Shown here piece by piece: positions 6,101 through 52,947 of a stretch of 64,000 bases of DNA. A model generated the notes under the pieces. It saw only the letters and a program-made list of their open reading frames with translations, made no database searches and had not been told where the DNA came from. The stretch lies in the sequence record OR670491; one strand, written 5' to 3'. Both the position numbers and the translations under genes were made by a program. Each line of letters begins with the position of its first letter. The stretch's first letter is position 1. The stretch comes from Escherichia phage vB_EcoM_JNE01.

Positions 6101-9100
6101 CTGCACTTGTGCGTAGACTTGTTAGAATTGATGGACCTTCAACAGATAGCTCAGTTGCATTAACTGCATTAATAGTTGCAGTAGTAGATTTAAGTACTGG
6201 AAGTACGTTAGCATTAACTAAGTCAGTACTTTGAATAATACCAGCAGAAGATAGTGATTTAACACTAACATCAGCAGCACTAAGATCAACAGTGCCAGCT
6301 ACTACTAAGTTACCACCAATGTTTGCACCTTCGGTTGTTGTAATAGATTTAGCACTAACATCAGTAGTGGTTAGGTCAATAGAACCTGGAGTTACGGAAC
6401 CAGTCACTACTAGATTACCAGTTACGGTAGTGTCGTTTTTAATTTCAACACCAGCAGCATTTGCAATTGATGGAGTAGTTAGTGAACCAACGGTAGCATT
6501 ACCAGTTACATCAAGAGTAGTACCCACAGATACTGCACCAGTAGCATCGAGTGAAGCTACATTAGATGCACCACTAACATTTAGTGCGGTTACATTTGCA
6601 GTTCCAACAGTTGCTGTGGTACTATTAAGTACTGGAAGTACGTTTGCATCAGTTGCGTTAGTAGAAGTTACAATACCTGGAGTAGTTAAAGATTTAACAC
6701 TAACGTCTGCTGCACTAAGATCAACTGTACCAGCTACTACTAAGTTGCCACCGATAGATGCACCAGCAGTTGTAGATATGGATTGAGCACTAACATCAGT
6801 CGTTGATAGATCAATTGCACCTGGGGTAAGTGTACCAGTGACAGTTACATTATCAGTAAAAGTAGTGTTACCGTTAATAGTTGGTGAAGTTAGAGTTCCA
6901 GTTGATAATGAACCAGTAGTTGCTGCACCAGTTAAATTCATAGAAGAACCAGCGATAGCTACACCTTCGATATTACCAGTTACTTTCAAAGAAGAACCAG
7001 AAATAGCTGCTGCACTAACGTTACCAGTTGCAGTGATTGCACCAGCACTTACATCGGCTAGGGTACTTGCACCAGCAACACTTAGGGTTGTGGTTACATC
7101 AACTTTATTAGGAGCAATATCAAGACCATCAACGTTAGCATCTGCTACAACACCAGTTGTAGTTCCAGTTACTACTAGGTCTTTAACTGTTACTGTTTGA
7201 CCAGTTACTGTCACATTCCCGCTAAATGCACCCGCTGCACCACTTACATCACCACTGAATGTACCGTTCACACCACTTACATTACCAGTAAATGTACCAT
7301 CAACACCGCTCACATTACCACTGAACTCACCACCAACGCCTTTTACGTTACCAGTACTGGTAATTGCTCCAGAGTTTAGTGCTCCAGTCACGTTAGCAGT
7401 TCCACCAACGAGTAAGTTAGCATTAATAGTTGCACCACCAGTTGATTCTAATGATGAAGATTTAATTTCACCAGCCGCAATAACGGAATTAGGTGTTAAA
7501 TCCTGACCACTCACATCAACTGTTAGACCAGTTACGACACCAGTGAAGTCTACATCATTAAGAATGGTTTTACCATTAACTTTTAGACGAGGTGTTGCTG
7601 GGCTTTGTGTTGAGTTACCTAGAATTTCTACATAATCTAATTTGTTTAGACCTTTACCTGTAATACCATAGGTCGCAAGAGACTCATCACCAAAAGTTGC
7701 AGTTTTTTGTACAGTAAGAGTTACCGGAGCCATAGATTCAGACTGGATTTCGTTCTGTAGTAGAACTGTTGGACGTTGACCTGCTGCGGAATAACCAAAA
7801 CCTAGTTTAACGTCAGCATTTGCAACGTTTTGACCAAGGGTAATGGCTTTAACAGTTGCAGTTGTGTTGTTACCAGTGATGTTTGCACCTAATGTAACTG
7901 CTCCGTTAAGACCAGTAGCACCACTTACGTTCAAACTGGTAGCCTGGATATCATCTAAATCAAATGTACCACCTAATGTTCCAGAAACATTGATGTTATT
8001 GAAGTTTGCAGTACCAGTACTTTCAATATTAGGTAATGTTGCAGTTCCAGTTACTTCTAAATCAGTGACCTTAGTTAGTCCTTTGGTTACTTCGAGTAAA
8101 GGAGTACTAGGATCTTGTGTTAAGTTACCACTAATAGTTACATAATCTAATTTGTTTAGACCTTTACTTGCGATACTATAGGTGGAAAGAGATTCATCAC
8201 CAAACGTCGCACTTTTTAGTACGTTTAGGTTAGTTGGTGACATTAATTCGGTTTGAATTTCGTTTTGTAGAACTACAGTTGGGCGAAGCCCTGCCGCTGA
8301 ATATGTAAAACTCAAGCGATCAGTACTACTTGCTGCGTTAGCACCCAATTTAATGTCTTTGAATGTCGCAGTTGTATTGATACCAGTGATGTTTGCACCT
8401 AATGTAACTGCTCCGTTAAGACCAGAAGCACCACTTACGTTCAATGAAGTTGCATTAATGTCATCAAGACTGAATGTACCACCAAGAACACCATTTATGT
8501 TAATATCATTGAAGTTAGCTGTACCAGTACTTTCAATATTAGGAATAGTAGCAGAACCAGTTACTTCGAAATCAGTTACTTTAGTTAAACCTTTAGTAAC
8601 TTCAAGTAAAGGAGTAGTTGGTGATTGAACTGTGTTACCACTAATAGATACATAATCTAATTTGTTTAGACCTTTACCTGTGATACCGTAAGTATCGAGA
8701 GACTCATCACCAAATGTTGCAGTTTTGAGTACGTTTAGGTTTGTTGGTGACATTAATTCAGATTGAATTTCGTTCTGTAGAACAACTGTAGGTCGTTGAC
8801 CTGATGCTGAATAGGTAAAACTCAAGCGATAAGTACTGCTTGCTGAGTTTGCACCCAATTTAATGTCTTTGAATGTCGCAGTACTATTGATACCAGTAAC
8901 GTTAGCACCAAATGTAACAGCACCTTGTAAACCAGAAGCACCACTTACGTTCAATGTAGTTGCATTAATGTCATCAAGGCTGAATGTACCGCCTAGTGTA
9001 CCACTAATATTAACATCTTTGAAGTTTGCTGTACCAGTGCCAGTGATAGTTTCACTAGAAATTGCAGTGATTGTTGCTTCATTTGCAGTTAATTTATCAA

Positions 9101-9536
9101 AAGCAGCAGTTGTGCCTACACCAGCAGTGATGTTACCATCAAATTGTGTAGTTCCGGTGACTTCTAATTGGTCAACTGTTGTGTTTTTAAGAACAGCAGA
9201 ACCAGCAGTTTGATTAATATCGTTGGCAAATGACGCAGTGCCGTTAAAAGATGCATTGGAGTTAACAGTTGCAGTATCAGAACCGACAACAGCATCACCA
9301 ATTACAGAATTACCTTTAATATCTACGCCACCATTAAGAGATGCTTTACCAGCTACGTCTAGGGTAGAAGTGATATTAGCAGTTGCTGCTTCAATTGCAG
9401 TAAATGTTGCATTTGCGAAAGAAACTGTACCATTTACGGTTACATTTTTCTCAAATACAGCATTACCTTTAACCAAAAGATCTTTATTTACCGTAGCACC
9501 ACCAGTAACATCTAGATCCGTCTTTATAGAGTACAT
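3174..9536 (-). CDS. giant tail fiber protein A (2120 aa), paralog of the fiber at 9675..14561
   Basis: Single ORF; N-terminus MYSIKTDLDVTGG... and C-terminus ...TLDQNTTLAPIAGLIG...FIAQR shared with neighbouring gene; Thr/Gly/Val/Ser-rich repetitive beta-type sequence; three tandem ~170-aa repeats; GGAGGG RBS. Confidence 0.8.
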   Translation of the reverse strand: MYSIKTDLDVTGGATVNKDLLVKGNAVFEKNVTVNGTVSFANATFTAIEAATANITSTLDVAGKASLNGGVDIKGNSVIGDAVVGSDTATVNSNASFNGTASFANDINQTAGSAVLKNTTVDQLEVTGTTQFDGNITAGVGTTAAFDKLTANEATITAISSETITGTGTANFKDVNISGTLGGTFSLDDINATTLNVSGASGLQGAVTFGANVTGINSTATFKDIKLGANSASSTYRLSFTYSASGQRPTVVLQNEIQSELMSPTNLNVLKTATFGDESLDTYGITGKGLNKLDYVSISGNTVQSPTTPLLEVTKGLTKVTDFEVTGSATIPNIESTGTANFNDININGVLGGTFSLDDINATSLNVSGASGLNGAVTLGANITGINTTATFKDIKLGANAASSTDRLSFTYSAAGLRPTVVLQNEIQTELMSPTNLNVLKSATFGDESLSTYSIASKGLNKLDYVTISGNLTQDPSTPLLEVTKGLTKVTDLEVTGTATLPNIESTGTANFNNINVSGTLGGTFDLDDIQATSLNVSGATGLNGAVTLGANITGNNTTATVKAITLGQNVANADVKLGFGYSAAGQRPTVLLQNEIQSESMAPVTLTVQKTATFGDESLATYGITGKGLNKLDYVEILGNSTQSPATPRLKVNGKTILNDVDFTGVVTGLTVDVSGQDLTPNSVIAAGEIKSSSLESTGGATINANLLVGGTANVTGALNSGAITSTGNVKGVGGEFSGNVSGVDGTFTGNVSGVNGTFSGDVSGAAGAFSGNVTVTGQTVTVKDLVVTGTTTGVVADANVDGLDIAPNKVDVTTTLSVAGASTLADVSAGAITATGNVSAAAISGSSLKVTGNIEGVAIAGSSMNLTGAATTGSLSTGTLTSPTINGNTTFTDNVTVTGTLTPGAIDLSTTDVSAQSISTTAGASIGGNLVVAGTVDLSAADVSVKSLTTPGIVTSTNATDANVLPVLNSTTATVGTANVTALNVSGASNVASLDATGAVSVGTTLDVTGNATVGSLTTPSIANAAGVEIKNDTTVTGNLVVTGSVTPGSIDLTTTDVSAKSITTTEGANIGGNLVVAGTVDLSAADVSVKSLSSAGIIQSTDLVNANVLPVLKSTTATINAVNATELSVEGPSILTSLRTSADAVIGTSLTVSGQATAVSLVTPTISNETGVEIASNTKVTGDLTVTGTVTPGAIDLATTDVSAKSITTTGGANIGGDLVVAGTFDLSASDVTANTLASVGNTTVGADLVLTTGNVTGSPAVSGNLSVAGTSTLTGAATVGNKLTVNTGGIQVVAGGVRVDTGSITAQGANISGTATLENASVTSNAAVGGTLGVTGAATLNGGLTSSALTVTGDSVVQKLTVKGEFIPEGGLDLSGADITANSLDVATTLKATGLSTLSGGVSTTDISGSGKITTVDAQTGTLTVTGNQTVGGTLGVTGKATTGSLDTGAVSATSGTFSSTLGVTGAATFADAVTVNGVFTPVGGLDLSTSDITANSLDVATTIKSTAGATIGGDSTIAGTLGVTGAVSAPSLTLSNASGTGLDVKGNAIVAGTLSTTGAVTLGNTLGVTGKATTGSLDTGAVSATSIVGTAGLTMAGNSSFTNDLTVSGTFTPAGGLDLTTSDIVAKSLSTSAAIHSDTNGTFGGTLGVTSNATVGGTLGVTGAVSAPSLALSSASGDALTVAADAKVTGKVTSGSLETGTVKTGANLVVGVKVGEQPETVQIFPDTFIAGKLRVEGGINADIDVSGQTLEPYAIEASATLSAVGNISTDAAVIANSGTFGAVGSQNNNLTVNGNVVTTGNFTVGGVLYANVDQSNADVNVKSLTSTNLVKGGSMQSTGNLTVGGAATITGTLGSGAITSTGKVKGVDGEFSGNVSGVGGTFTGAVTVGTTLGVTGAATVGGTLGVTGKATLAEASVTNLTTSGTATIGSTLAVTGTSTLAAVNISGALTTTGSVTLGDAAADVITVNGTSTFIEKATFEKGIEVAGVFTTDEANFVTTSVTTKKYDVIPSQVTSSTVAPAGTWTPDGSTSVYFITLDQNTTLAPIAGLIGGGKAASIFMYAKQDATGNRVLTADPSYSIVDGEQNLAANSVTIYQAVYDGVSNVIDLFIAQRTS
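7470..9040. repeat. three tandem ~510-bp coding repeats inside fiber A
   Basis: Motif CATAATCTAATTTGTTTAGACC recurs at about 7631, 8141 and 8651 (period 510); encoded protein repeats TGTANFxDxNxSGxLGGTFxLDDI... x3. Confidence 0.8.
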
Positions 9537-9575
9537 ATAGTTCCCTCCATTTTGGGTTATTAAAATACCATGTTT

Positions 9576-9674: not shown

Positions 9675-12600
9675 TTATACACGTTGAGCAATGAAGGTAT
9701 CAAATACAGTACTGAAACCATCATAAACAACTTGAATGATACTAACTTGGTTCACAACTGAACTTACCTGACCAGATACAACTGCGTATTCAGCAGGGAT
9801 AGTTAGAACAGCATCACTAACAGTTGGTGTTACGTAAATGTATACAGAACACGCTTCACCGCTACCGATTAGACCAGTAATTGGTGCTAGGGTAGTGTTT
9901 TGGTCAAGAGTTAGACGATATACGTTACTAGAACCATCTGGAGTCCATGTACCGGATACAGAAGCGGTAGAAGCTACTACTGAAGTTGGTAGAACAGAGT
10001 ATTTCTTAGTGATTACAGTACTGGTTGTGAAATCAGCATCAGTAGTGTTCAATGCACCAGTCACCGTTAGGGCTTTATCAATCACAACGTTCTCTTTGAA
10101 GGTTGCAGTGCCATTAACAGTGATAGTATCAGCGGCAGCATCACCTAGAACAACATTACCATTAGCGGTTAATGTACCAGTAAAGGTTGCAGAACCAGTT
10201 ACGGCTACACTTGCTAGTGTTGCTAAACCTGTTGTAGTTATGGATGCAGTTGAAATTTCACTTTGAACGCTTAAGTTTTCAGAGAATGTTGCTGCACCTG
10301 TAACGGCTACACCACCATTCAGACTCGCTAGTCCAGTTACTGCAAGGGTAGAGCCGGTTTCTAAACTTCCACCAGTAATTTTACCAGTTGCAGTAATTGT
10401 TGTACCAGCAGAAATTGAAGTCCCCGCATTCACATTGTTGGTTGCAGTTAAAGATTTAACAGCTACATCAGAATCCGCTTGGTTCAATTGTGCGTTTAGT
10501 ACTCCTGTTACTGTGAAGTCACCGTTGGTTACAACGTTACCATTTACGGTTAGGTTGTTGTTTAGTGAACCAGAATCACCAATTGTTGCTGCTTTAGCAA
10601 TCATGGTTGCACCAGAAGTGATGTTACCAACTGCACTAACAGTTGAATCAGCCGCAATTGCGAATGGTTCTAATGTTTGACCGCTTACATCGATATCGGC
10701 GTTAATACCACCATCAACACGTAGTTTACCAGCAATATATGTATCAGGAACAATATGAACTGTTTCTGGTTGAACTGCTAGAGGTGTGCCAACTGTAAAT
10801 GATGTACCAGTTTTCACTGCACCACTTGCGGTTAGATCTGCAACGGTTGTTGCTCCAGTCACACCTAGTGTACCACCAACTGTAGTATTACCAGTAGAAG
10901 ATAAAACTCCTGCCCCGACAGTTCCAGATGCAGTTAATGATGTTGCATTGATGTCTGCTGTTGATATTCCACCACTCAATGTACTCAAACCAGTAACACT
11001 TAAAGTAGTTGATGAAGACAAGCTATTTGCAGAAACATCAGCACCAGTTAGATCCAAACCACCTTGTGGAATCAATGTACCTTCAACTGTTACGTTACCT
11101 TTTGCCACGGTTGCACCAGTTACTTCCAAAGACGCAGCAGTTGCTTTACCAGAGGTAGATAGAGTTGAAACACTTGTTGCACCAGCTTGTACTACACCAA
11201 GAGTTGAGGTTCCAGTAACACCAAGAGTGGTTGTTACGGATGCACTTGATAGGGTACTTGCCCCAGCAGTTAGCCCAGCAAGAGATGTTGTACCAGTTAC
11301 GCCTAGTGTACCACCAACGGTAGTATTACCAGAGATTACAGGAGCACCAGTAATTACCCCAGTTGTTAGTACTAAATCAGCACCAACAGTTGTGTTTCCA
11401 GTACTTGCTAGTGTTGCAGCTTGTAGGTTTGTACCACTTAGGTCAAATGTACCATCAACTGTTAAATTACCTGCAACGTGTGCATTACCAAGAGAGTTAA
11501 GTGACTTAACAGAAACATCAGTAGTGCTTAGATCAATTGCACCAGCAGTTAAAGTACCAGATGCATGGAAATCACCAGTAACATTTGTGGATTTTGAAAT
11601 TTCAACTGTTGCACCAGGAGCCGTGAAGGATGCACCACTAATTGCACCAGTTGCCGCTACAGAACTAGCATCAATTGCAGTTGCAGATACAGCAGCAAGG
11701 GTAGAAGCACCAACAACATCAAGTGAGCCAGAAGCAGAAATATTACTTGTATTAATATTAGCTACAGTACTTTCCCCAGATACATTCAATGTTGTTGCTT
11801 TTGCTGCACCTAATGTACTATCGGTTGAAGATAGTTTAGGGAATGTATTGGTTTTTAATGCATCAGTACTAACAAAACTTAATGCAGATACATCTGCACC
11901 ACTTAAATCAACAGTACCTGCAACAGATAGGTTTCCACCGATAGTAGCACCTTCAGTTGTGGTTATTGAGTTAGAAGTTATGTCAACTGAGCTTAGGTCA
12001 AGACCACCTTGCGGGGTAAAGACACCTGTTACGGTTAGGTCTTTAGCTGCTACTACATTACTAGCAAGATTCAATGTTCCCGCACCAGACGCTCCAGCTT
12101 GAACCGTAGGAGTTGTTACAGAAGTTGAAATTGTAGCAGTTGTAGAAGATAAACGTGAACCAGAAACAACACCAGTACTGGTCAATGTTCCAACTTTTGC
12201 AGCACCAGTAGTTGTGATAGTACCACCAGATACATCACCGGAAGCTACTACAGAAGATGCGTTAACAACACCAAAGGTACTTGGGTTAGTTGCAGTAATA
12301 GATTTTGCAGTTACATCAGCAGAACTAAGATCGATAGCACCAGATACAGCAAGAGAACCACCTACGGTTACGTTTCCAGTAGTAGTTAAAGATGCAGCAC
12401 TTACATCAGTAGTACTTAAATCAATCCCACTTGGAGTTAGTGTTCCAGTGATCGTAACATCATTAGCAAATGTAGTATTCCCACTGATAGTTGGAGCAGT
12501 TAGTGAACCAACAGTCGCAGCACCAGTTACTTCTAAAGAACCAGCAGTTGCTTTACCGGACACACCTAGTGAATTACCTAAAGTAACAGCACCAGTTACA

Positions 12601-14561
12601 CCTAATGTACCACCAACTGTAGCATTACTCACTACATGAAGACCAGTACCAGATGCACCATTTAGTGTTAGATACCCTGCCGATGCTGCACCAGATATAG
12701 TTGCTGAACTTGCATTAACAGCAGCCAATGTGGTTTCACCAGCAACACTTAGTGTTGTTGTTACATCAACTTTATTAGGAGCAATATCAAGGCCATCTAC
12801 GTCGGCTACGGCGGTTACACCAGTTGTGGTTCCAGTTACTACTAGATCCTTAACAGTTACTGTTTGGCCTTGTACGGTTACATTACCATCTAAAATACTA
12901 TCTCCAGTTACACCTAATGTTCCACCAAGAGACGTTCCACCTGTGACTTCTAGATAGCCAGCAGTGGTTTTGCCAGTAGAAGTTAATGTTGTTCCCTGAA
13001 TACCAGACGTTGCAGTTACGGAGTTAGGAGTTAGATCCTGCCCACTAACATCAACAGTTAGGCCAGTAACAGTTCCTGTGAATTCTACATCACCTAGAAC
13101 CGATTTACCAGCAACAGAAAGTTGTGGAGTTCCTGGAGCTTGAGTAGCGTTACCAGCGATTTCTAGATAATCTAGTTTGTTTAGACCTTTACCTGTGATA
13201 CCATATGTTGCTAGTGAAGCATCACCAAAGGTTGCAGTTTTCTGAACAGTTAATGTAGCAGGAGACATTAATTCAGATTGAATTTCGTTCTGTAGAAGAA
13301 CAGTTGGGCGTTGACCAACGGCAGTATAAGCAAAACCAACTTTGGTATCAGCACTTGCAGATGCTGGACCTAGGTTTAGTGCTTTAATATTTGCAGTAGT
13401 GTTAGTACCACTGATATTACCACCTAGAGTTACAGAACCTTCAAGACTAGTTAGGCCAGATACTTTTAGTGTTTGTGCTTCGATATCACCTAAACTGAAT
13501 GTACCACCAAGAACACCACTTACGTTAATGTTATTGAAGTTTGCAGTGCCAGTACTTTCAATATTAGGAATAGTAGCAGAACCAGTTACTTCGAAATCAG
13601 TTACTTTAGTTAAACCTTTAGTAACTTCAAGTAAAGGGGTAGCTGGTGATTGAACTGCGTTACCACTAATAGTTACATAATCTAATTTGTTTAGACCATT
13701 ACCAGTGATACCAAAAGTACTTAAAGATGCATCACCAAAAGTAGCAGACTTAAGAACAGTTAGGGATGCTGGAGACATTAGCTCGGACTGAATTTCGTTT
13801 TGTAGAATTACAGTTGGGCGTTGGCCTGGTGCGGTATAAGTGAAGCTTAAACGGTAAGCACTGCTTGCGGAGTTAGCACCGATTTTGACATCTTTAAATG
13901 TTGCAGTTGTGTTGATACCAGTGATGTTCGCACCTAGAGTAACAGCACCCTGTAGGCTACTTTGACCAGACACAGTTAGGGTAGTTGCGTTTACATCAGA
14001 AAGACTGAATGCACCACCTAGTGTACCACTTATGGTAACATCGTTAAAGCTGGCTGTACCAGTACTATTAATGTCGGTTGCATTTAAAGTTGCAATAGTT
14101 GCTTCGTTTGCAGATAGTTTATCAAATGCAGCAGTAGTTCCTGCGTCAGCATTAATATTACCTTTAAAAGTTGAAATTCCATCAACTGATAGTGAGTCAA
14201 CAGATGTTGCTTTCAAATCAACATTACCAGCAGTTTGACGAATATTACCACCAAATGAAACACCAGAGTTAAAAGTTGCTGCGGAGTTAATTGTAGCAGT
14301 ATCAGTACCTGGTGCTACTGCACCAATCACAGTGCTACCTACCACTTCAACACCACCATTAAGAGATGCTTTACCAGCTACATCTAGGGTAGAAGTGATA
14401 TTAGCAGTTGCTGCTTCAATTGCAGTGAATGTAGCATTTGCAAAAGAAACTGTACCATTTACGGTAAGATTCTTATTGAATACTGCATCACCTTTAACTA
14501 ATAGATCTTTACCGACTACAGCACCACCAGTAATATCTAGATCAGTTTTAATCGAGTACAT
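9675..14561 (-). CDS. giant tail fiber protein B (1628 aa), paralog of fiber A
   Basis: N-terminal ~80 aa and C-terminal ~60 aa nearly identical in pattern to fiber A; two tandem ~170-aa repeats; GGAGGG RBS. Confidence 0.8.
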   Translation of the reverse strand: MYSIKTDLDITGGAVVGKDLLVKGDAVFNKNLTVNGTVSFANATFTAIEAATANITSTLDVAGKASLNGGVEVVGSTVIGAVAPGTDTATINSAATFNSGVSFGGNIRQTAGNVDLKATSVDSLSVDGISTFKGNINADAGTTAAFDKLSANEATIATLNATDINSTGTASFNDVTISGTLGGAFSLSDVNATTLTVSGQSSLQGAVTLGANITGINTTATFKDVKIGANSASSAYRLSFTYTAPGQRPTVILQNEIQSELMSPASLTVLKSATFGDASLSTFGITGNGLNKLDYVTISGNAVQSPATPLLEVTKGLTKVTDFEVTGSATIPNIESTGTANFNNINVSGVLGGTFSLGDIEAQTLKVSGLTSLEGSVTLGGNISGTNTTANIKALNLGPASASADTKVGFAYTAVGQRPTVLLQNEIQSELMSPATLTVQKTATFGDASLATYGITGKGLNKLDYLEIAGNATQAPGTPQLSVAGKSVLGDVEFTGTVTGLTVDVSGQDLTPNSVTATSGIQGTTLTSTGKTTAGYLEVTGGTSLGGTLGVTGDSILDGNVTVQGQTVTVKDLVVTGTTTGVTAVADVDGLDIAPNKVDVTTTLSVAGETTLAAVNASSATISGAASAGYLTLNGASGTGLHVVSNATVGGTLGVTGAVTLGNSLGVSGKATAGSLEVTGAATVGSLTAPTISGNTTFANDVTITGTLTPSGIDLSTTDVSAASLTTTGNVTVGGSLAVSGAIDLSSADVTAKSITATNPSTFGVVNASSVVASGDVSGGTITTTGAAKVGTLTSTGVVSGSRLSSTTATISTSVTTPTVQAGASGAGTLNLASNVVAAKDLTVTGVFTPQGGLDLSSVDITSNSITTTEGATIGGNLSVAGTVDLSGADVSALSFVSTDALKTNTFPKLSSTDSTLGAAKATTLNVSGESTVANINTSNISASGSLDVVGASTLAAVSATAIDASSVAATGAISGASFTAPGATVEISKSTNVTGDFHASGTLTAGAIDLSTTDVSVKSLNSLGNAHVAGNLTVDGTFDLSGTNLQAATLASTGNTTVGADLVLTTGVITGAPVISGNTTVGGTLGVTGTTSLAGLTAGASTLSSASVTTTLGVTGTSTLGVVQAGATSVSTLSTSGKATAASLEVTGATVAKGNVTVEGTLIPQGGLDLTGADVSANSLSSSTTLSVTGLSTLSGGISTADINATSLTASGTVGAGVLSSTGNTTVGGTLGVTGATTVADLTASGAVKTGTSFTVGTPLAVQPETVHIVPDTYIAGKLRVDGGINADIDVSGQTLEPFAIAADSTVSAVGNITSGATMIAKAATIGDSGSLNNNLTVNGNVVTNGDFTVTGVLNAQLNQADSDVAVKSLTATNNVNAGTSISAGTTITATGKITGGSLETGSTLAVTGLASLNGGVAVTGAATFSENLSVQSEISTASITTTGLATLASVAVTGSATFTGTLTANGNVVLGDAAADTITVNGTATFKENVVIDKALTVTGALNTTDADFTTSTVITKKYSVLPTSVVASTASVSGTWTPDGSSNVYRLTLDQNTTLAPITGLIGSGEACSVYIYVTPTVSDAVLTIPAEYAVVSGQVSSVVNQVSIIQVVYDGFSTVFDTFIAQRV
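13060..14066. repeat. two tandem ~505-bp coding repeats inside fiber B, homologous to the fiber A repeats
   Basis: TCTAATTTGTTTAGACC recurs about 505 bp apart (near 13170 and 13680); stretches such as GGAATAGTAGCAGAACCAGTTACTTCGAAATCAGTTACTTTAGTTAAACC are shared with fiber A around 8530-8600. Confidence 0.75.
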
Positions 14562-14612
14562 TTAGTTCCCTCCATTTGAATGATTATAAACATAACCATT
14601 CTCGTTAATATG

Positions 14613-14633: not shown

Positions 14634-14665
14634 AAAAAAACCAGACCTGATACTAAAGGTCTGGT
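14634..14665 (-). terminator. intrinsic terminator after the 298-aa fiber/spike gene
   Basis: CCAGACC-loop-GGTCTGG hairpin followed on minus strand by TTTTTTT. Confidence 0.65.
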
Positions 14666-14673
14666 TATATTTT

Positions 14674-15570
14674 TTATTTACCGGATATTACAACCTTGCC
14701 ACTAAATGCAACATAGGATGTGAATATAACATTACCACTAGCATCAATTTGAGTTTCAGCAGTAACAGCTTCAAAAGGTGCAAGAGCAGTACTGCCTTGT
14801 ACTTTATTACCGTATAGAGAAACGTATAGATTGTCAGGGGTTTGTTTATGATCTGCTGCTGGAATAGTTAGAGTGAATTGATCACCGGAAGCTACCCAAT
14901 CAGCCTGATTAATAAGTTTACTGTATGGTACTGTCATAGTTGTTGCTCCTATAATATTAATTTTAACACTTGCGTATTCTGAAAGCTGACCAACTACTTC
15001 TAGAGTTATATCACCAATACCAGAAACTGTAACGTTAGTTTGGAATACAGAATCCAAATCGACATCACCTGGGTCACCTTGCAATTGAACCATAATATCA
15101 GCACCGCGACCATGAATAGATTCAGGAAGAGTGTATGTATATTTGTCAGATGAACCTGGCTCTAATACAAATGCTGAAACTGGAACAGTATGTGTGGTTA
15201 CATAAGAACTATCACTACCAGGAGTAGATGATTTAAGTGGTTTCCATACACCAAGGTCTTTAATATAAATCTGAAGTGTATTTTCAGCATCAACTAGGAA
15301 ATACACATCACCATCGGTTCCCAATGCATCAGCAGGAGCTACAGTACCGCGAAGAATACCACCAGCACCACCGCCACCATGTGCGTTTAAATATCCCAAG
15401 GTTACCAGATGGGTATTAGCTGTTGGGTCAGCCGCAGAAATTGGAAGAAGACCAGTTCCTGTATAGTTTTGAATTTGCACAACACTACCATTCGTAGTGA
15501 TTTGTGCACCATTTTTACCAAGTATGAAGGTCTTCTTCATGGTTCCTTCTAAATTAGAAAAAACTGCCAT
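14674..15570 (-). CDS. tail fiber/spike protein with conserved N-terminal anchor domain (298 aa)
   Basis: Start moved to the ATG preceded by AAAGGAGATGA RBS (MAVFSNLEGTMKKTFILGKNGAQI...); N-terminal ~110 aa parallel the N-terminus of the adjacent tailspike (VFSNLEGTM..FILGK.GA.I). Confidence 0.7.
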   Translation of the reverse strand: MAVFSNLEGTMKKTFILGKNGAQITTNGSVVQIQNYTGTGLLPISAADPTANTHLVTLGYLNAHGGGGAGGILRGTVAPADALGTDGDVYFLVDAENTLQIYIKDLGVWKPLKSSTPGSDSSYVTTHTVPVSAFVLEPGSSDKYTYTLPESIHGRGADIMVQLQGDPGDVDLDSVFQTNVTVSGIGDITLEVVGQLSEYASVKINIIGATTMTVPYSKLINQADWVASGDQFTLTIPAADHKQTPDNLYVSLYGNKVQGSTALAPFEAVTAETQIDASGNVIFTSYVAFSGKVVISGK

Positions 15571-15584
15571 TTTAATCATCTCCT

Positions 15585-17727
15585 TTATGATAGAGTTATA
15601 TATGTTATTGGCTGTGCCGCTTTTAATAATGCACCTGCTGCTGTAGCAGTTACAATTGGGTCGGCAATGTCAACGCGGTATGCGTTTGATACTACGTAAA
15701 CTGCTCTGGTGATGTATGTTAATAAATCTTCACCATTTGCCCCAGCACCTGTAATGAGTATTTGTGTTCCAGCAGCTTTCGCATATTGGTTATCACCCCA
15801 TGATACGCCTAACGCCTCTATATATGTTTGTCCTACAACCGTTTGTCGTATGGTGTCGTATTTTCCGAAGAAAGAACCACCAACTGTTACAATATATTTA
15901 CTCCCTGACTGGTTGTGAATAATTGTACCTTGTGGGAAATAACGACCACCAGGGAACGTGTCATATGGAACATAATATTGTTCAACTACAGGTATCAGTA
16001 CTGGACCACGGTGACCAGTTCCGTCAATATCAGTTGGTACTTTAAAGTTGTTAGATGATTGGTCAATTCTATCCACATACATTTTAGCAAAACTATATTT
16101 GGATATGTTACAATCATCTTGGACTACACAGTTTGTCCAGTTTGTATATGTATATTTAGAACGGGTATACAAACCACCACCTTCACCTTCTGTTGACAAG
16201 TGTTGACCAATAACATCTAACTCTTTAGTGCGAATATCACTAAACTTAGAAGCTGATGGAAGACCACGCCATTGAATCTTAGTACAAGTTACATTGGATA
16301 ATTCAGTATTGTTTGTCCAGTTATCAGAACAAGATGTATAAACTAAAATAGTTGATTCTGGAATATACAAATTAGATAATTTAAAGTTACGTGGAGGTCC
16401 AGCAAATTTACCAGAAGTTACACCCCAGTTTATAGAAACCATACGTGTAGTTACTGATGCGTCATTTAATAGATGTCCAGTAAGACCATCGACAATAAAG
16501 TCTTTTGAACCATAAGTGATAACACCACAGGTAGTAAGGCCAGTACCAGTCGATACCAATGAGGATGGATATACCTCGTTATCTAAAATTTTAAAATCTT
16601 TACCAACTTCAACGTGAATACACTGACGAACGTTATAAACTCTATTGTTTTTAATAACAAAGTTTTTAACATATTGTGAATCAGGAGCATCAACGTCATA
16701 TGGACCAGAACCCGCTACCCCAATTCCTATACCCCAGTTTGATAATGGGATTGGTGCATTAGTACCGTCAACGTTTTCAATAATATTTCCTTCAATTACA
16801 AAACCATCAGGATAATGAGAGTTGATAACGTTTAGTTCGATTGCATCCCCATAGATATCGTGAATATGGTTATAAGAATAACGCCCTACTGTCATTTTTT
16901 CACCCGTGCCTTGTTGAAGAACTCCATACTTACAAAGAGTCATTTCATTAAAGCAGAAATCAATAGTGCCAGTTTGAGTCATACCTTGCATTAAAAACGC
17001 AGCAGTACTGGTAATGTTTATAAATTTATTAAAATAAAATTTACCATCACCACCAAAGAATTTAAGATAACAACCAGTTAATGTAGCAAATTGTATATGG
17101 CAGTTGATTACAGAAATCATAGTACCGCCGTTACCTGTTATTGTTCCACCAAACCAAGTTATATCTTCCAAGTATAAGGCTGTTTTAATTCTATAATTAC
17201 CTTTACCTTGAACTTGAATTTTATTCTCTTTTGCATATACTGCACAGGCATTTACTGCCGCAGTGTCATCTGTTTCACCATCACCTGCTGCCCCAAACTC
17301 TTCAGGAGTTACATAGAACTGTGCTTGTTGAAGTGTTCCTCCTGTTATCAATCCAATATAATCTCCGTCCGTTAACACTTGACAAAATATCTTTATTAAC
17401 GTATAGTGATTTTACCCATTTACCATCAATTTTTAGAAATATATCAACAATCCCTTCACTGTTAGTTTGGAAATATGTATAATTATTTTTACCGATATCA
17501 TCTGAAGGGATGGCTTCACCAAACATTACGGTTGGGTGATCTTCTAGATACTTAACATTGACAGCAGAATCGGCATCAACCGCAGACCCTACTTTAACTG
17601 GTAGAAATTTTTCACCAAATGAATCCTTTATTGAAATGGAATCATCTGAAAAACTAATCAAGGCTCCTTTTTTACCAAGGATGAATGAGGGCTGCATGGT
17701 TCCTTCTAAATTAGAAAAAACTGACAT
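15585..17727 (-). CDS. tailspike with pectate-lyase-type beta-helix (depolymerase-like); N-terminal anchor domain and enzymatic domain in different frames (apparent +1 frameshift near 17380-17410)
   Basis: ORF 17302..17727 encodes the anchor domain (MSVFSNLEGTMQPSFILGKKGALI...); ORF 15585..17378 (+1 frame, starts only at GTG without RBS, in-frame stop 11 codons upstream) encodes ...EEFGAAGDGETDDTAAVNA..., the classic right-handed beta-helix pectate lyase/tailspike signature. Confidence 0.6.
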
Positions 17728-17741
17728 AATCAATACCCCCG

Positions 17742-18869
17742 TTAGATGTTATCGCTAATTGGTTGTATTGGTGATTGCCATGCCAAAGTACAGATAATTT
17801 TAATTTGACCATAAGCACTGTTGTTTACAGAGTCGTTGAAAATACAAGAGATAATTTCATCTTTATCAGAAACAGTGTGGTTAACTTCGTTAACAATAAA
17901 ACGCATTTTACGGTTAATGTCAAAATAATCAACTGGAGCAATTACAGTACCCCCAATATCTTCTTGTGCTTCACCACCGAAACGAACAAACATTTCGTTA
18001 ACTGGTAAATCATAAGCTTGTTGTACATCAACATCGATATTAGTAACTAGGTATCCAGCAGGACATGTACCAATAACTAGAACGGCGTTAGTCCATGAAT
18101 GATCAATAGTGTTTACAATAACCAAGGAATCTTTACCTGGAGCACCTGTAGCACCTGGTAGACCTTGTTCACCTTGAATACCCTGTTTACCACGGAATTC
18201 AATACCAGTACTCCACTCTTTGGAAGGCGGGGTTGTGGTGTTTACAATATCAACATAGTATAGTTTACCATCTGTGGTATTATAGAAGCAGTAGTCTTCA
18301 GGAAGGTCAGTAATACTAGGGAATACATCACCAGTACTATCAATATGGAATCGTCCACGTAGACCTTGTGGGCCACGGAATTGTACACCATCACTCCAAG
18401 TTGCAGTTACTGATTGATAGAAATAAACTTTACCATCAGTTGTATTATAGAATGTATAGTTGTTTACGAGGTTAGTAGTTGGGAATGTATCACCAGAGCT
18501 ATCAATATGGAATGATTTACCAGCTTCACCAGTATCACCTTTACCAAATTCTACAACGTTCCAAGTACTATTACTGTCAGTTGCGGCGTTGGTTTTGAAA
18601 TATAGCTTACTAGTTCCGTTTGCAAGACTAAGATAGCACCAGCCAAGTTCTTCACCTACTCGGAATGATTCATCTGGGATTTCAAAACCTATCTCGTTTG
18701 GATAAAAGTTTTTACCATTTGTACCATCTCTACCAACAACAAGACCTAGATCTTGAATTGTGTTGTCAGCGTAAGTTACGATCAAATGTCCAGCAGAGTT
18801 GATAACTAAACTCTTTATGCCGGAATTATTGCATGAACTACTAGTCCCATTATTAAATGAAATTGTCAT
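17742..18869 (-). CDS. collagen-like repeat-containing fiber protein (375 aa)
   Basis: Start placed at MTISFNNG (AAAGGAAATAATA RBS) rather than the upstream ORF-track start; contains G-x-y triplet runs GPQGLRG and GKQGIQGEQGLPGATGAPGKD. Confidence 0.6.
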   Translation of the reverse strand: MTISFNNGTSSSCNNSGIKSLVINSAGHLIVTYADNTIQDLGLVVGRDGTNGKNFYPNEIGFEIPDESFRVGEELGWCYLSLANGTSKLYFKTNAATDSNSTWNVVEFGKGDTGEAGKSFHIDSSGDTFPTTNLVNNYTFYNTTDGKVYFYQSVTATWSDGVQFRGPQGLRGRFHIDSTGDVFPSITDLPEDYCFYNTTDGKLYYVDIVNTTTPPSKEWSTGIEFRGKQGIQGEQGLPGATGAPGKDSLVIVNTIDHSWTNAVLVIGTCPAGYLVTNIDVDVQQAYDLPVNEMFVRFGGEAQEDIGGTVIAPVDYFDINRKMRFIVNEVNHTVSDKDEIISCIFNDSVNNSAYGQIKIICTLAWQSPIQPISDNI

Positions 18870-40545: not shown

Positions 40546-41310
40546 TTAATCCTTTAATATTATGTTAAAATTATCATAAAAGTACCTTTTTAGTACTGAG
40601 ATATGATCCTCATTGTATTTTATACGAAGCAAGTTAATATCATGTTCAGTACAGTACGCGTTTTTAATTTTATCATTGTGTTGAGTTTGTTTTAGTGATT
40701 CATCTCCACCCCAATGTTCTGAACATTGAAAATGCTGTTCACCATCATATTCAATACACAAATTCAAATCTTCAATATAAAAATCAAATGGTAAAGTGAA
40801 TACGTTTCGACAATCAGAAAAACGCTTTTCTTTTACATACTTCATAAAAGATAACATTTTTTCTATATCTGTTACAGCTTTTGATTGAGTTGATTCCATC
40901 ATACACTGCTCACAACCATGCCTACTAGCCAAATGATTATCAGGTCTTTGTAAAAATGACCCATGTATGGGGCATATTATGGATATATGTGTTTTGTTGT
41001 TAATATACTCCGCAGTATTGTAATCAAATTTGTTTTTAAACTTCAAATTAGCTTTTTCACGAAAATTTATAAAGTTTTTTGGACTTTTTTGACGGTTTGC
41101 ATTATATTCTTTTGAACATTTCATGCAACCTTTACCACTAGTATGATCGTTTGGTCTTTGAAGAAAAAAACCATGCTTTTCACACCCAATCCATACCTTT
41201 GTTTTTGCATTATGGTATTTAACCATACTATAATCATATCTAATTCCATGAACTCGTATTGCATTGGTCACAAATTTGTCTTTCGTTGATCTTGTGGTTG
41301 CATATTTCAT
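40546..41310 (-). CDS. free-standing homing endonuclease-like protein (two CxxC/HG repeat modules plus Vsr-like PD-(D/E)xK nuclease domain)
   Basis: Two tandem ~60-aa modules with HGxxYDYS...KVWIGCEKHGFFLQRPNDHTSGKGCMKC / ...ISIICPIHGSFLQRPDNHLASRHGCEQC; C-terminal ...FDFYIEDLNLCIEYDGEQH resembling Vsr/Hef-type endonucleases; GGAG RBS. Confidence 0.6.
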   Translation of the reverse strand: MKYATTRSTKDKFVTNAIRVHGIRYDYSMVKYHNAKTKVWIGCEKHGFFLQRPNDHTSGKGCMKCSKEYNANRQKSPKNFINFREKANLKFKNKFDYNTAEYINNKTHISIICPIHGSFLQRPDNHLASRHGCEQCMMESTQSKAVTDIEKMLSFMKYVKEKRFSDCRNVFTLPFDFYIEDLNLCIEYDGEQHFQCSEHWGGDESLKQTQHNDKIKNAYCTEHDINLLRIKYNEDHISVLKRYFYDNFNIILKD

Positions 41311-52874: not shown

Positions 52875-52947
52875 CGTTAGTTTTCAGTGCAGGAACTAAG
52901 TACTTTTTCATAAAAAAATCACATAATACTGAGACACTTTTAAAAAA

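Follow-up and report, generated by a model that had tools for sequence, protein, structure and literature searches.

Can a tailspike gene whose anchor and enzymatic domains lie in different reading frames still provide a working enzyme, and is such a break real? The question is raised by a 64,000-nucleotide (nt) stretch of Escherichia phage vB_EcoM_JNE01 (record OR670491; this whole stretch is hereafter the window), in which two minus-strand open reading frames (ORFs), an anchor ORF at 17302..17727 and a beta-helix ORF at 15585..17378, overlap by 77 nt (17302..17378), the beta-helix frame being +1 with respect to the anchor frame. A sequence-only reading had correctly described this arrangement and both domains, an anchor and a pectate-lyase-like beta-helix, and had proposed a sequencing indel, a recent inactivating mutation or a programmed frameshift as its cause. 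We report here that the break is a single inserted base, that the enzyme is more specifically a predicted colanidase, and, with moderate confidence, that the insertion created a natural, prevalent and lineage-specific null or strongly hypomorphic allele of an accessory colanidase spike.

The inserted base and the gene it divides

By sequence comparison, the region comes from an Asteriusvirus (121Q/PBECO4-like jumbo coliphage). Its nearest relative is Turkey5 (PQ471516.1), with 99.8% identity across 3.2 kb of the region and ~98.9% over the whole 64 kb; the 121Q/PBECO4 group (Asteriusvirus) shares ~78% nucleotide identity with the region. The orthologous coding sequence (CDS) of Turkey5 and 121Q is 2142 nt long and encodes 713 amino acids (aa), and the corresponding span in the window measures 2143 nt. 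The anchor ORF runs on the minus strand from ATG 17727 to TGA 17304-17302 and encodes 141 aa (identical to JNE01 WOL22755.1), of which residues 1-120 are the native N-terminal anchor and residues 121-141 (RRLYWIDNRRNTSTSTVLCNS) an out-of-frame tail. The beta-helix ORF, on the same strand, ends at the stop codon 15587-15585 and counts 597 codons from GTG 17378 or 588 from TTG 17351, the 588-aa product being an exact match to JNE01 WOL22754.1.

On the basis of its homologies, we assign the gene as orthologous to the tailspike of 713 aa annotated for 'colanic acid degradation', with a colanidase as its enzyme part. Residues 5-596 of the +1-frame ORF align with residues 36-623 of Phi92 gp150 (PDB 6E0V/6E0W; E=4e-235), so that homology to the colanidase/WcaM-type beta-helix family covers the whole catalytic module; PF27800 (WcaM) is assigned to the 588-aa product in public gene calls, and a PF12708 match is weak. 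Phi92 gp150 is reported to degrade colanic acid (PMC10975011). The colanidase beta-helix module is common to gp150 and the window protein, whose enzymatic role is thereby predicted, but in gp150 only ~35 residues precede the homologous region, whereas in the window a 120-aa RaK2/121Q-type anchor is, or was, joined to the module. The combination of anchor and colanidase, in a slot between a 375-aa fibre gene and a 298-aa paralog, is shared with 121Q gp573 (YP_009102160.1), PBECO4 and Turkey5 XMR01803.1 (713 aa). In these three phages it is a single ORF, from which the window differs by the base inserted at 17367 together with the linked T of 17304, and the Turkey5 protein is identical in sequence to the window protein repaired in silico.

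The WcaM-type beta-helix also occurs as a stand-alone protein of 581-602 aa, with 41-44% identity to the phage colanidase (L027/L028 3001-4746; L029 301-2109), encoded beside Tn3 transposase, resolvase and IncFII repA, or beside a glycosyltransferase; these genes seem to belong to plasmids or bacterial contigs and not to phages. Two such proteins of 580-600 aa (P0015 and P0018) were considered as phage precedents for a separate enzyme and discarded, being plasmid or bacterial and located near Tn3, resolvase and IncFII repA.

Alignments with Turkey5, 121Q and phage vB_Ec-M-J (EcMJ, OQ718158) place the extra base, a coding-strand C (plus-strand G), at 17367 on the minus strand, as the first base of codon 121 (CGG): AAC GGA [C] GGA GAT. 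It was found in 19 of 19 split-allele sequences. The shift had previously been sought in the A/T stretch 17380-17411; the actual break lies in GGA-C-GGA, and its context, AACGGA[C]GGAGAT, holds no homopolymer.

The position of the insertion relative to the modules is defined by homologies on either side. Similarity to the paralog (14674..15570) stops at about residue 109, and similarity to Phi92 gp150 starts at GDYIGL, directly 3' of the inserted base. An AlphaFold2 model of a fused ortholog gives a predicted local distance difference test (pLDDT) score below 50 for residues 107-136 and a confident beta-helix from about residue 140; note that the overall confidence of this model is low (mean pLDDT 58), and that it was used solely for the pattern of linker and domain start. 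From the end of the paralog homology, the start of the gp150 homology and the low-confidence segment 107-136, the insertion is predicted to lie in the linker that joins the anchor module to the enzyme module.

Across the 64 kb, Turkey5 and the window differ by ~660 substitutions and by a single frame-breaking indel in a solid gene, the one at 17367. Since it is the only one, the frame break exceeds what is expected by chance. The remaining indels are intergenic, compensating, in-frame, or within a dubious 41-codon ORF. Two of them, at window positions 52881 (a T-run in the 41-codon Turkey5 ORF) and 53614 (an intergenic A-run), are 1-base length differences and the sole homopolymer indels seen in the window.

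The only other fixed difference in the gene between the split alleles and Turkey5 is an A>T substitution at 17304 (minus strand), synonymous in the enzyme frame (CCA>CCT), which makes the anchor-frame stop UCC UGA and without which the stub would be 7 codons longer. T is present in 19 of 19 split sequences and A in Turkey5, 121Q and EcMJ, hence T is the derived state. The ancestral A in Turkey5 argues for a real fused haplotype rather than a missing-C error in that record.

The split allele among relatives and in public assemblies

In cultured relatives, the full-length matches to the junction measure 577 nt against 578 nt for the window, each within one 2142-nt CDS, apart from the fragmented CMSTMSU record (alignment of 572 nt). 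On this comparison, which the sequence-only reading had called for, the cultured orthologs carry one ORF, none has anchor and enzyme as separate genes, and the insertion is derived and confined to the JNE01-type lineage. The split is a disruption of a gene that is intact in the orthologs, as in a pseudogene or null allele, and the two-frame arrangement is not conserved among orthologs as it would be in a programmed ribosomal frameshift. The orthologous colanidase gene of EcMJ is also annotated as two CDS (~4530-4560 of L003), the cause being an extra A in an A8 run at another position, within the beta-helix, which is probably a homopolymer sequencing error or slip.

The insertion is a genuine natural variant that circulates in environmental assemblies. 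The exact 141-aa product occurs in 55 index blocks of a public-assembly collection (28 contigs counted), and the exact 588-aa product on 31 contigs of ENA/Logan assemblies; four more variants of the 141-aa protein differ from it by 1-3 residues each. We compared 19 sequences, namely the window and 18 loci from distinct ENA analyses and SRA/DRA runs. The split-allele samples come from several submitters (ERZ, SRR and DRR accessions) and carry distinguishable haplotypes, and JNE01 itself was sequenced by Illumina (NovaSeq). Exact-pattern scans for the junction, with and without the extra base, returned nothing from IMG/VR or JGI metagenome contigs, and a junction megablast against complete Escherichia coli genomes gave no match; the JNE01-type lineage is visible only via the ENA/Logan/NCBI protein index.

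The split alleles fall into several haplotypes. A main group comprises the window, L006-L008, L011-L014 and L023; group B (L015-L019, partly L020 and L021) has 8 clustered differences at gene positions 4-174 and 9 more downstream; L010 and L022 are further split haplotypes. L009 shows no difference at positions 1-603 but 86 differing sites beyond them, this second part reading clearly as a recombinant tract. The upstream 3-kb flanks of the split alleles are up to 71 single-nucleotide polymorphisms (SNPs) apart. Fused Turkey5 and split L011 are identical over 3 kb upstream and 1.3 kb downstream, and within the gene differ only by the indel, the linked site 17304 and one SNP private to L011. This near-identity implies that fused and split alleles coexist on essentially one background and that recombination is frequent.

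To compare the abundance of the two forms, six fused proteins repaired in silico, including the Turkey5 protein, were looked up by exact match in a collection of 15 billion proteins and were absent from it, whereas their split counterparts were present. When the fused Turkey5 protein served as a homology query, the matches were confined to representatives of 121Q-type clusters, none above 84% identity. Note that this census is indirect, as exact look-up would miss fused variants with other substitutions as well as unnamed cluster members. In public assemblies, as far as these could be queried, the split form is more numerous than the fused one. Overall, these comparisons indicate an allele that is prevalent and recombining in a wild phage lineage, not a one-off.

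Fate of the enzyme module

Translation from the normal start ends at 141 aa, an anchor stub with its 21-aa out-of-frame tail, and leaves the enzyme module in the +1 frame with neither an ATG nor a well-placed ribosome-binding site. As described before, the enzyme frame is shut upstream, 11 codons before GTG 17378, by a TAA (17412..17414, minus strand); together with the anchor stop, this TAA confines any restoration of the frame to the interval 17414-17302. The earlier statement that the beta-helix frame lacks a ribosome-binding site holds for GTG 17378, whose best Shine-Dalgarno (SD) duplex reaches -0.9 kcal/mol versus -5.6 to -9.9 kcal/mol at the real gene starts of the operon. It does not hold throughout, as GGAG (17366-17363) precedes two in-frame codons in a candidate internal initiation region (17349..17366, minus strand): ATT 17357-17355 at 5-nt spacing and TTG 17351-17349 at 11-nt spacing. 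All neighbouring genes start with ATG and have an SD at ~6-9 nt.

Nor did the interval reveal a conventional recoding signal. Between 17414 and 17302 we found no prfB-like CUU_UGA_C, no X_XXY_YYZ heptamer and no long homopolymer, and the predicted RNA fold of 17240-17420 is unremarkable (z=-1.37). The arrangement resembles prfB (RF2) in the +1 direction of the shift and in a zero-frame UGA inside the overlap, but differs from it by the lack of CUU_UGA_C, of an SD 3 nt before the shift site and of conservation in orthologs. In place of a canonical slippery site with a stimulator there are only non-canonical candidates (CGG, AGG_AGG and UCC_UGA). A conserved programmed frameshift, the third proposal of the sequence-only reading, is thus not supported in its usual sense, the split being restricted to the JNE01-type lineage and the canonical site and unusual RNA structure both absent. 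Transcriptional slippage was likewise discarded, the longest runs in 17414-17302 being A5 (17413-17409) and T4 where at least 7-9 are needed.

With a GTG devoid of SD, an ATT and a TTG that are poor in start codon or spacing, and no recoding signals, a null or hypomorphic allele is the explanation that we place first. The single-base insertion would have arisen in the JNE01-type Asteriusvirus lineage at the anchor/colanidase junction of the 713-aa tailspike, and virions of the split lineage would bear a docking stub with little or no attached colanidase. The spike is presumably accessory and non-essential. Its loss would be tolerated and possibly favoured, given several other fibres, and the branched fibre apparatus may still have its docking site occupied by the stub. 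The allele would have become common in the wild by spreading onto many backgrounds through recombination. At the prevailing mutation rate the allele would be too young for its enzyme ORF to have been damaged, and recombination with alleles that had evolved under selection probably brought in most of the variation in this ORF. Of the inactivating mutation envisaged by the sequence-only reading, the derived and lineage-specific character stands and is best supported; its being recent calls for a reservation, the allele being already present on backgrounds separated by as many as 71 SNPs per 3 kb.

A comparable case is laboratory lambda PaPa, whose side-tail-fibre gene stf is reportedly split by a one-base frameshift, as Hendrix and Duda are said to have described in 1992. 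There too, an accessory fibre gene reportedly became two ORFs, and the phage remained viable with loss of an accessory adsorption function. The lambda break is, however, said to have arisen in laboratory stocks, whereas in the present case it is in environmental assemblies that the split allele predominates, and the break falls precisely at a module junction.

Several observations weigh against a dead enzyme. The enzyme ORF shows no secondary stop and no indel in 19 of 19 sequences. Polymorphisms in its frame are 85 synonymous to 12 nonsynonymous (P ~5e-38, against an expected synonymous fraction of ~0.25, as for the values that follow), and 16 to 2 once sites varying in L009 only are left out (P ~3e-8). 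Variants with at most 2 carriers, taken as young, number 5 to 2 (P=0.014), and strict singletons 1 to 1, too few for statistical power. One identical 588-aa protein is encoded on 31 contigs; the split allele, lying on backgrounds up to 71 SNPs per 3 kb apart, is not brand new; and it is more numerous than the fused form in the collection. The intact ORF, the synonymous bias and the prevalence are all compatible with continued use of the enzyme. This signal is weakened because recombination can import variation already filtered by selection, and many variants match outgroup states or lie in tracts. Constraint on the enzyme ORF after the split is therefore suggested, not decisively, by these patterns.

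Continued use could be achieved in two ways, which we regard as about equally probable and each clearly less so than a null or hypomorphic allele. One is a functional split into two genes, an unlikely but serious candidate, in which the enzyme would be translated from a weak internal start, TTG 17351 or ATT 17357 behind GGAG, and the stub would fill the docking site. The enzyme would then be either a diffusible colanidase freed at lysis or non-covalently re-associated with the fibre apparatus, and its predicted N-terminus would be M-ITGGTLQQ or M-GLITGG. Gene callers do predict the 588-aa product from TTG 17351 in every assembly, and GGAG stands before ATT and TTG, at 5 and 11 nt respectively. 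The break falls exactly at the module boundary, hence both parts could fold, and the enzyme ORF is intact with synonymous-biased polymorphism. Bacterial plasmids do encode stand-alone WcaM-type proteins of 580-600 aa, and the PDB chain of Phi92 gp150 (626 aa) has just ~35 residues before the homologous region. However, GGAG is older than the insertion (GGAGGAG in the fused allele), so that the insertion brought no gain in initiation. The candidate starts are non-ATG and poor in spacing or identity, unlike those of every neighbouring gene, and they lie within the translated tail of the anchor ORF, where elongating ribosomes would occlude them. Finally, we found no relative that has anchor and enzyme as separate genes.

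The other way, equally doubtful, is compensatory +1 frameshifting of the 'savior indel' type by stalled ribosomes, which would yield a reduced dose of full-length tailspike; the stalling would occur at codons read by the least abundant tRNAs of E. coli, or at the stop. After the insertion the anchor frame reads GGA CGG AGA UUA UAU UGG AUU GAU AAC AGG AGG ... UCC UGA. The proposed stall sites are GGA CGG AGA at the insertion, with CGG AGA (17362..17367, minus strand) as the codons directly after it and GGA as the overlapping +1 codon; the AGG AGG tandem, a pair of rare codons for arginine, 8 codons on (17338..17343, minus strand; codons 129-130 of the anchor frame, read as (A)CA GGA GGA in the enzyme frame); and the stop itself, UCC UGA A. 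The product would be wild-type if the inserted C is skipped, and would otherwise carry an altered linker of 9-21 aa. The predicted junction peptides are SSVNGGDYIGL, IDNRGTLQQ and VLCNSEEFGAAGDG, or, given by site, SSVNGGDYIGLITGG at GGA_CGG, WIDNRGTLQQAQ at AGG_AGG and VLCNSEEFGAAGDGETDDTAAVN at UCC_UGA.

All three candidate sites fall within the permissive interval 17414-17302, and the codons concerned are rare: in the 33 long ORFs of the window (19,787 codons), CGG occurs 0 times, AGG 17 times and the AGG-AGG tandem never. Rare codons are, however, expected by chance in an out-of-frame read. In the close relative Turkey5, the tRNA cluster comprises Gly(UCC), two Ser, Asn and two Thr; its tRNA-Gly(UCC) reads the +1 codon GGA, and we found no tRNA-Arg in this cluster. 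A tRNA-Arg is likewise not listed for fEgEco12 (PMC13070987). The linked derived T at 17304, which makes UCC UGA, and the intact enzyme ORF with its synonymous-biased polymorphism also fit such shifting.

UCC_UGA is the eukaryotic antizyme site, and at AGG_AGG the +1 shift efficiencies in E. coli range from 1 to 50%. Work by Spanjaard and van Duin from 1988 and by Gurvich and colleagues from 2005 reportedly found AGG_AGG prone to +1 shifting in E. coli. The window frame resembles hungry-codon shifting at AGG_AGG or AGA_AGA in that host, as it likewise contains AGG AGG and CGG AGA and a +1 shift enters the enzyme frame. The E. coli cases are incidental or engineered and depend on expression level, whereas shifting in the window is a candidate event. 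UCC UGA is a frequent +1 site in RECODE data (PRFect paper), but shifting at UCC_UGA is not established in bacteria.

Single-base inserts whose effect is compensated form a class of their own in the literature (Atkins et al. 2016, PMC5009743). Its savior indels, in bird and turtle mitochondrial nad3 and in a G-run of the herpesvirus TK gene, share with the window a one-base insert that is retained upstream of an intact ORF. Those cases have a demonstrated product and long conservation, whereas here we have a candidate in one phage lineage that coexists with a fused allele. Several further features speak against +1 shifting. P-site re-pairing is poor at GGA>GAC and AAC>ACA; the candidate sites are preceded by no SD at prfB-like spacing and accompanied by no stimulatory structure; and the arrangement is not conserved beyond one lineage. 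Gene positions 186-435 show no variation among the 19 sequences that could reveal frame-specific constraint. Only tentatively, then, might the insertion have been kept as a savior indel that tunes colanidase dose, through +1 shifting at a few percent or through the release of free depolymerase. If true, most chains would end as a docking stub and a minority would become full-length spikes; this would be a naturally selected case of hungry-codon +1 recoding in a phage structural gene, and the fused and split alleles would be a dosage or host-range polymorphism.

In addition to its known members, the Turkey5 tRNA region (287000-296000; L026, 531-603, 791-869 and 1997-2310) contains the tRNA-Gly(UCC) as an unannotated gene (56 bits), a weak extra tRNA match (33 bits) and a group I intron (95 bits) just 5' of an HNH homing-endonuclease gene. 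This tRNA-Gly is also present in BAU.Micro_ELP-22, A4 and the RaK2/K64-1 group.

Last in our ranking, a sequencing or assembly error in a single genome whose true gene is fused, although single-base indels are the commonest assembly artefact and the fused gene is what the nearest GenBank phage record (Turkey5) shows, is extremely improbable and is rejected, along with the sequencing indel of the earlier reading, because the identical insertion and the same frameshifted proteins are reproduced in JNE01 and 18 other samples from several submitters with distinct haplotypes, because GGA-C-GGA without homopolymer is not an error-prone site, and because no further frame-breaking indel affects a solid gene in the 64 kb.

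Operon setting and meaning for the lineage

The tailspike gene is the second of a three-gene minus-strand operon (18869>17742, tailspike, 15570>14674) in which each spacer is 14 nt long and holds an SD. The first gene (17742..18869) encodes a 375-aa fibre protein. The third (14674..15570) encodes the 298-aa paralog, which, as the sequence-only reading had noted, carries the same N-terminal anchor in frame (34% identity over 109 aa, E=1e-19) and a different distal domain. A terminator-like hairpin (CCAGACCT...AGGTCTGG) followed by a T-run marks the 3' end of the operon (14634..14664, minus strand), and a search for T4-type late promoters (TATAAATA) within the operon found none.

The first 57-65 nt of the tailspike gene (MSVFSNLEGTMQPSFILGKKG; window 17663-17727, minus strand) share 82-86% nucleotide identity with other jumbo phages, of Erwinia, Xanthomonas, Pectobacterium (CBB), Cronobacter (GAP32), Serratia (BF) and Yersinia. 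Judged from these matches, DNA conservation over the first ~65 nt of the anchor seems unusually strong, more so than is typical of a fibre N-terminus.

Two other regions of the window call for mention. Stretches at ~7400-9550 and 12700-14580, ~5 kb apart, are 75-84% identical in DNA; the second copy lies inside a 1628-aa fibre gene (9675..14561) and the first just upstream, where it matches the adjacent giant Turkey5 gene, which suggests duplicated or recombining repeat modules. Between baseplate-wedge genes, a 254-aa ORF at 40546-41310 (minus strand) combines DUF723, a treble-clef zinc finger and a DUF2726-like C-terminus; it is missing from Turkey5, which has ~30 nt in place of ~767 nt, and looks like an insertion polymorphism of a free-standing homing endonuclease.

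For the JNE01-type lineage, our results mean that two 'hypothetical proteins' are the halves of one colanidase tailspike, and that the break between them is real. In phage therapy and in host-range predictions, a virion-bound colanic-acid depolymerase should not be assumed for these phages. JNE01 and Turkey5, whose repaired proteins are identical, form an inexpensive natural test pair for asking if an accessory depolymerase spike can be dispensed with, or carries a cost, in the field, and the same pair could also reveal whether rare-codon +1 shifting or weak internal initiation sustains a frameshifted phage gene.

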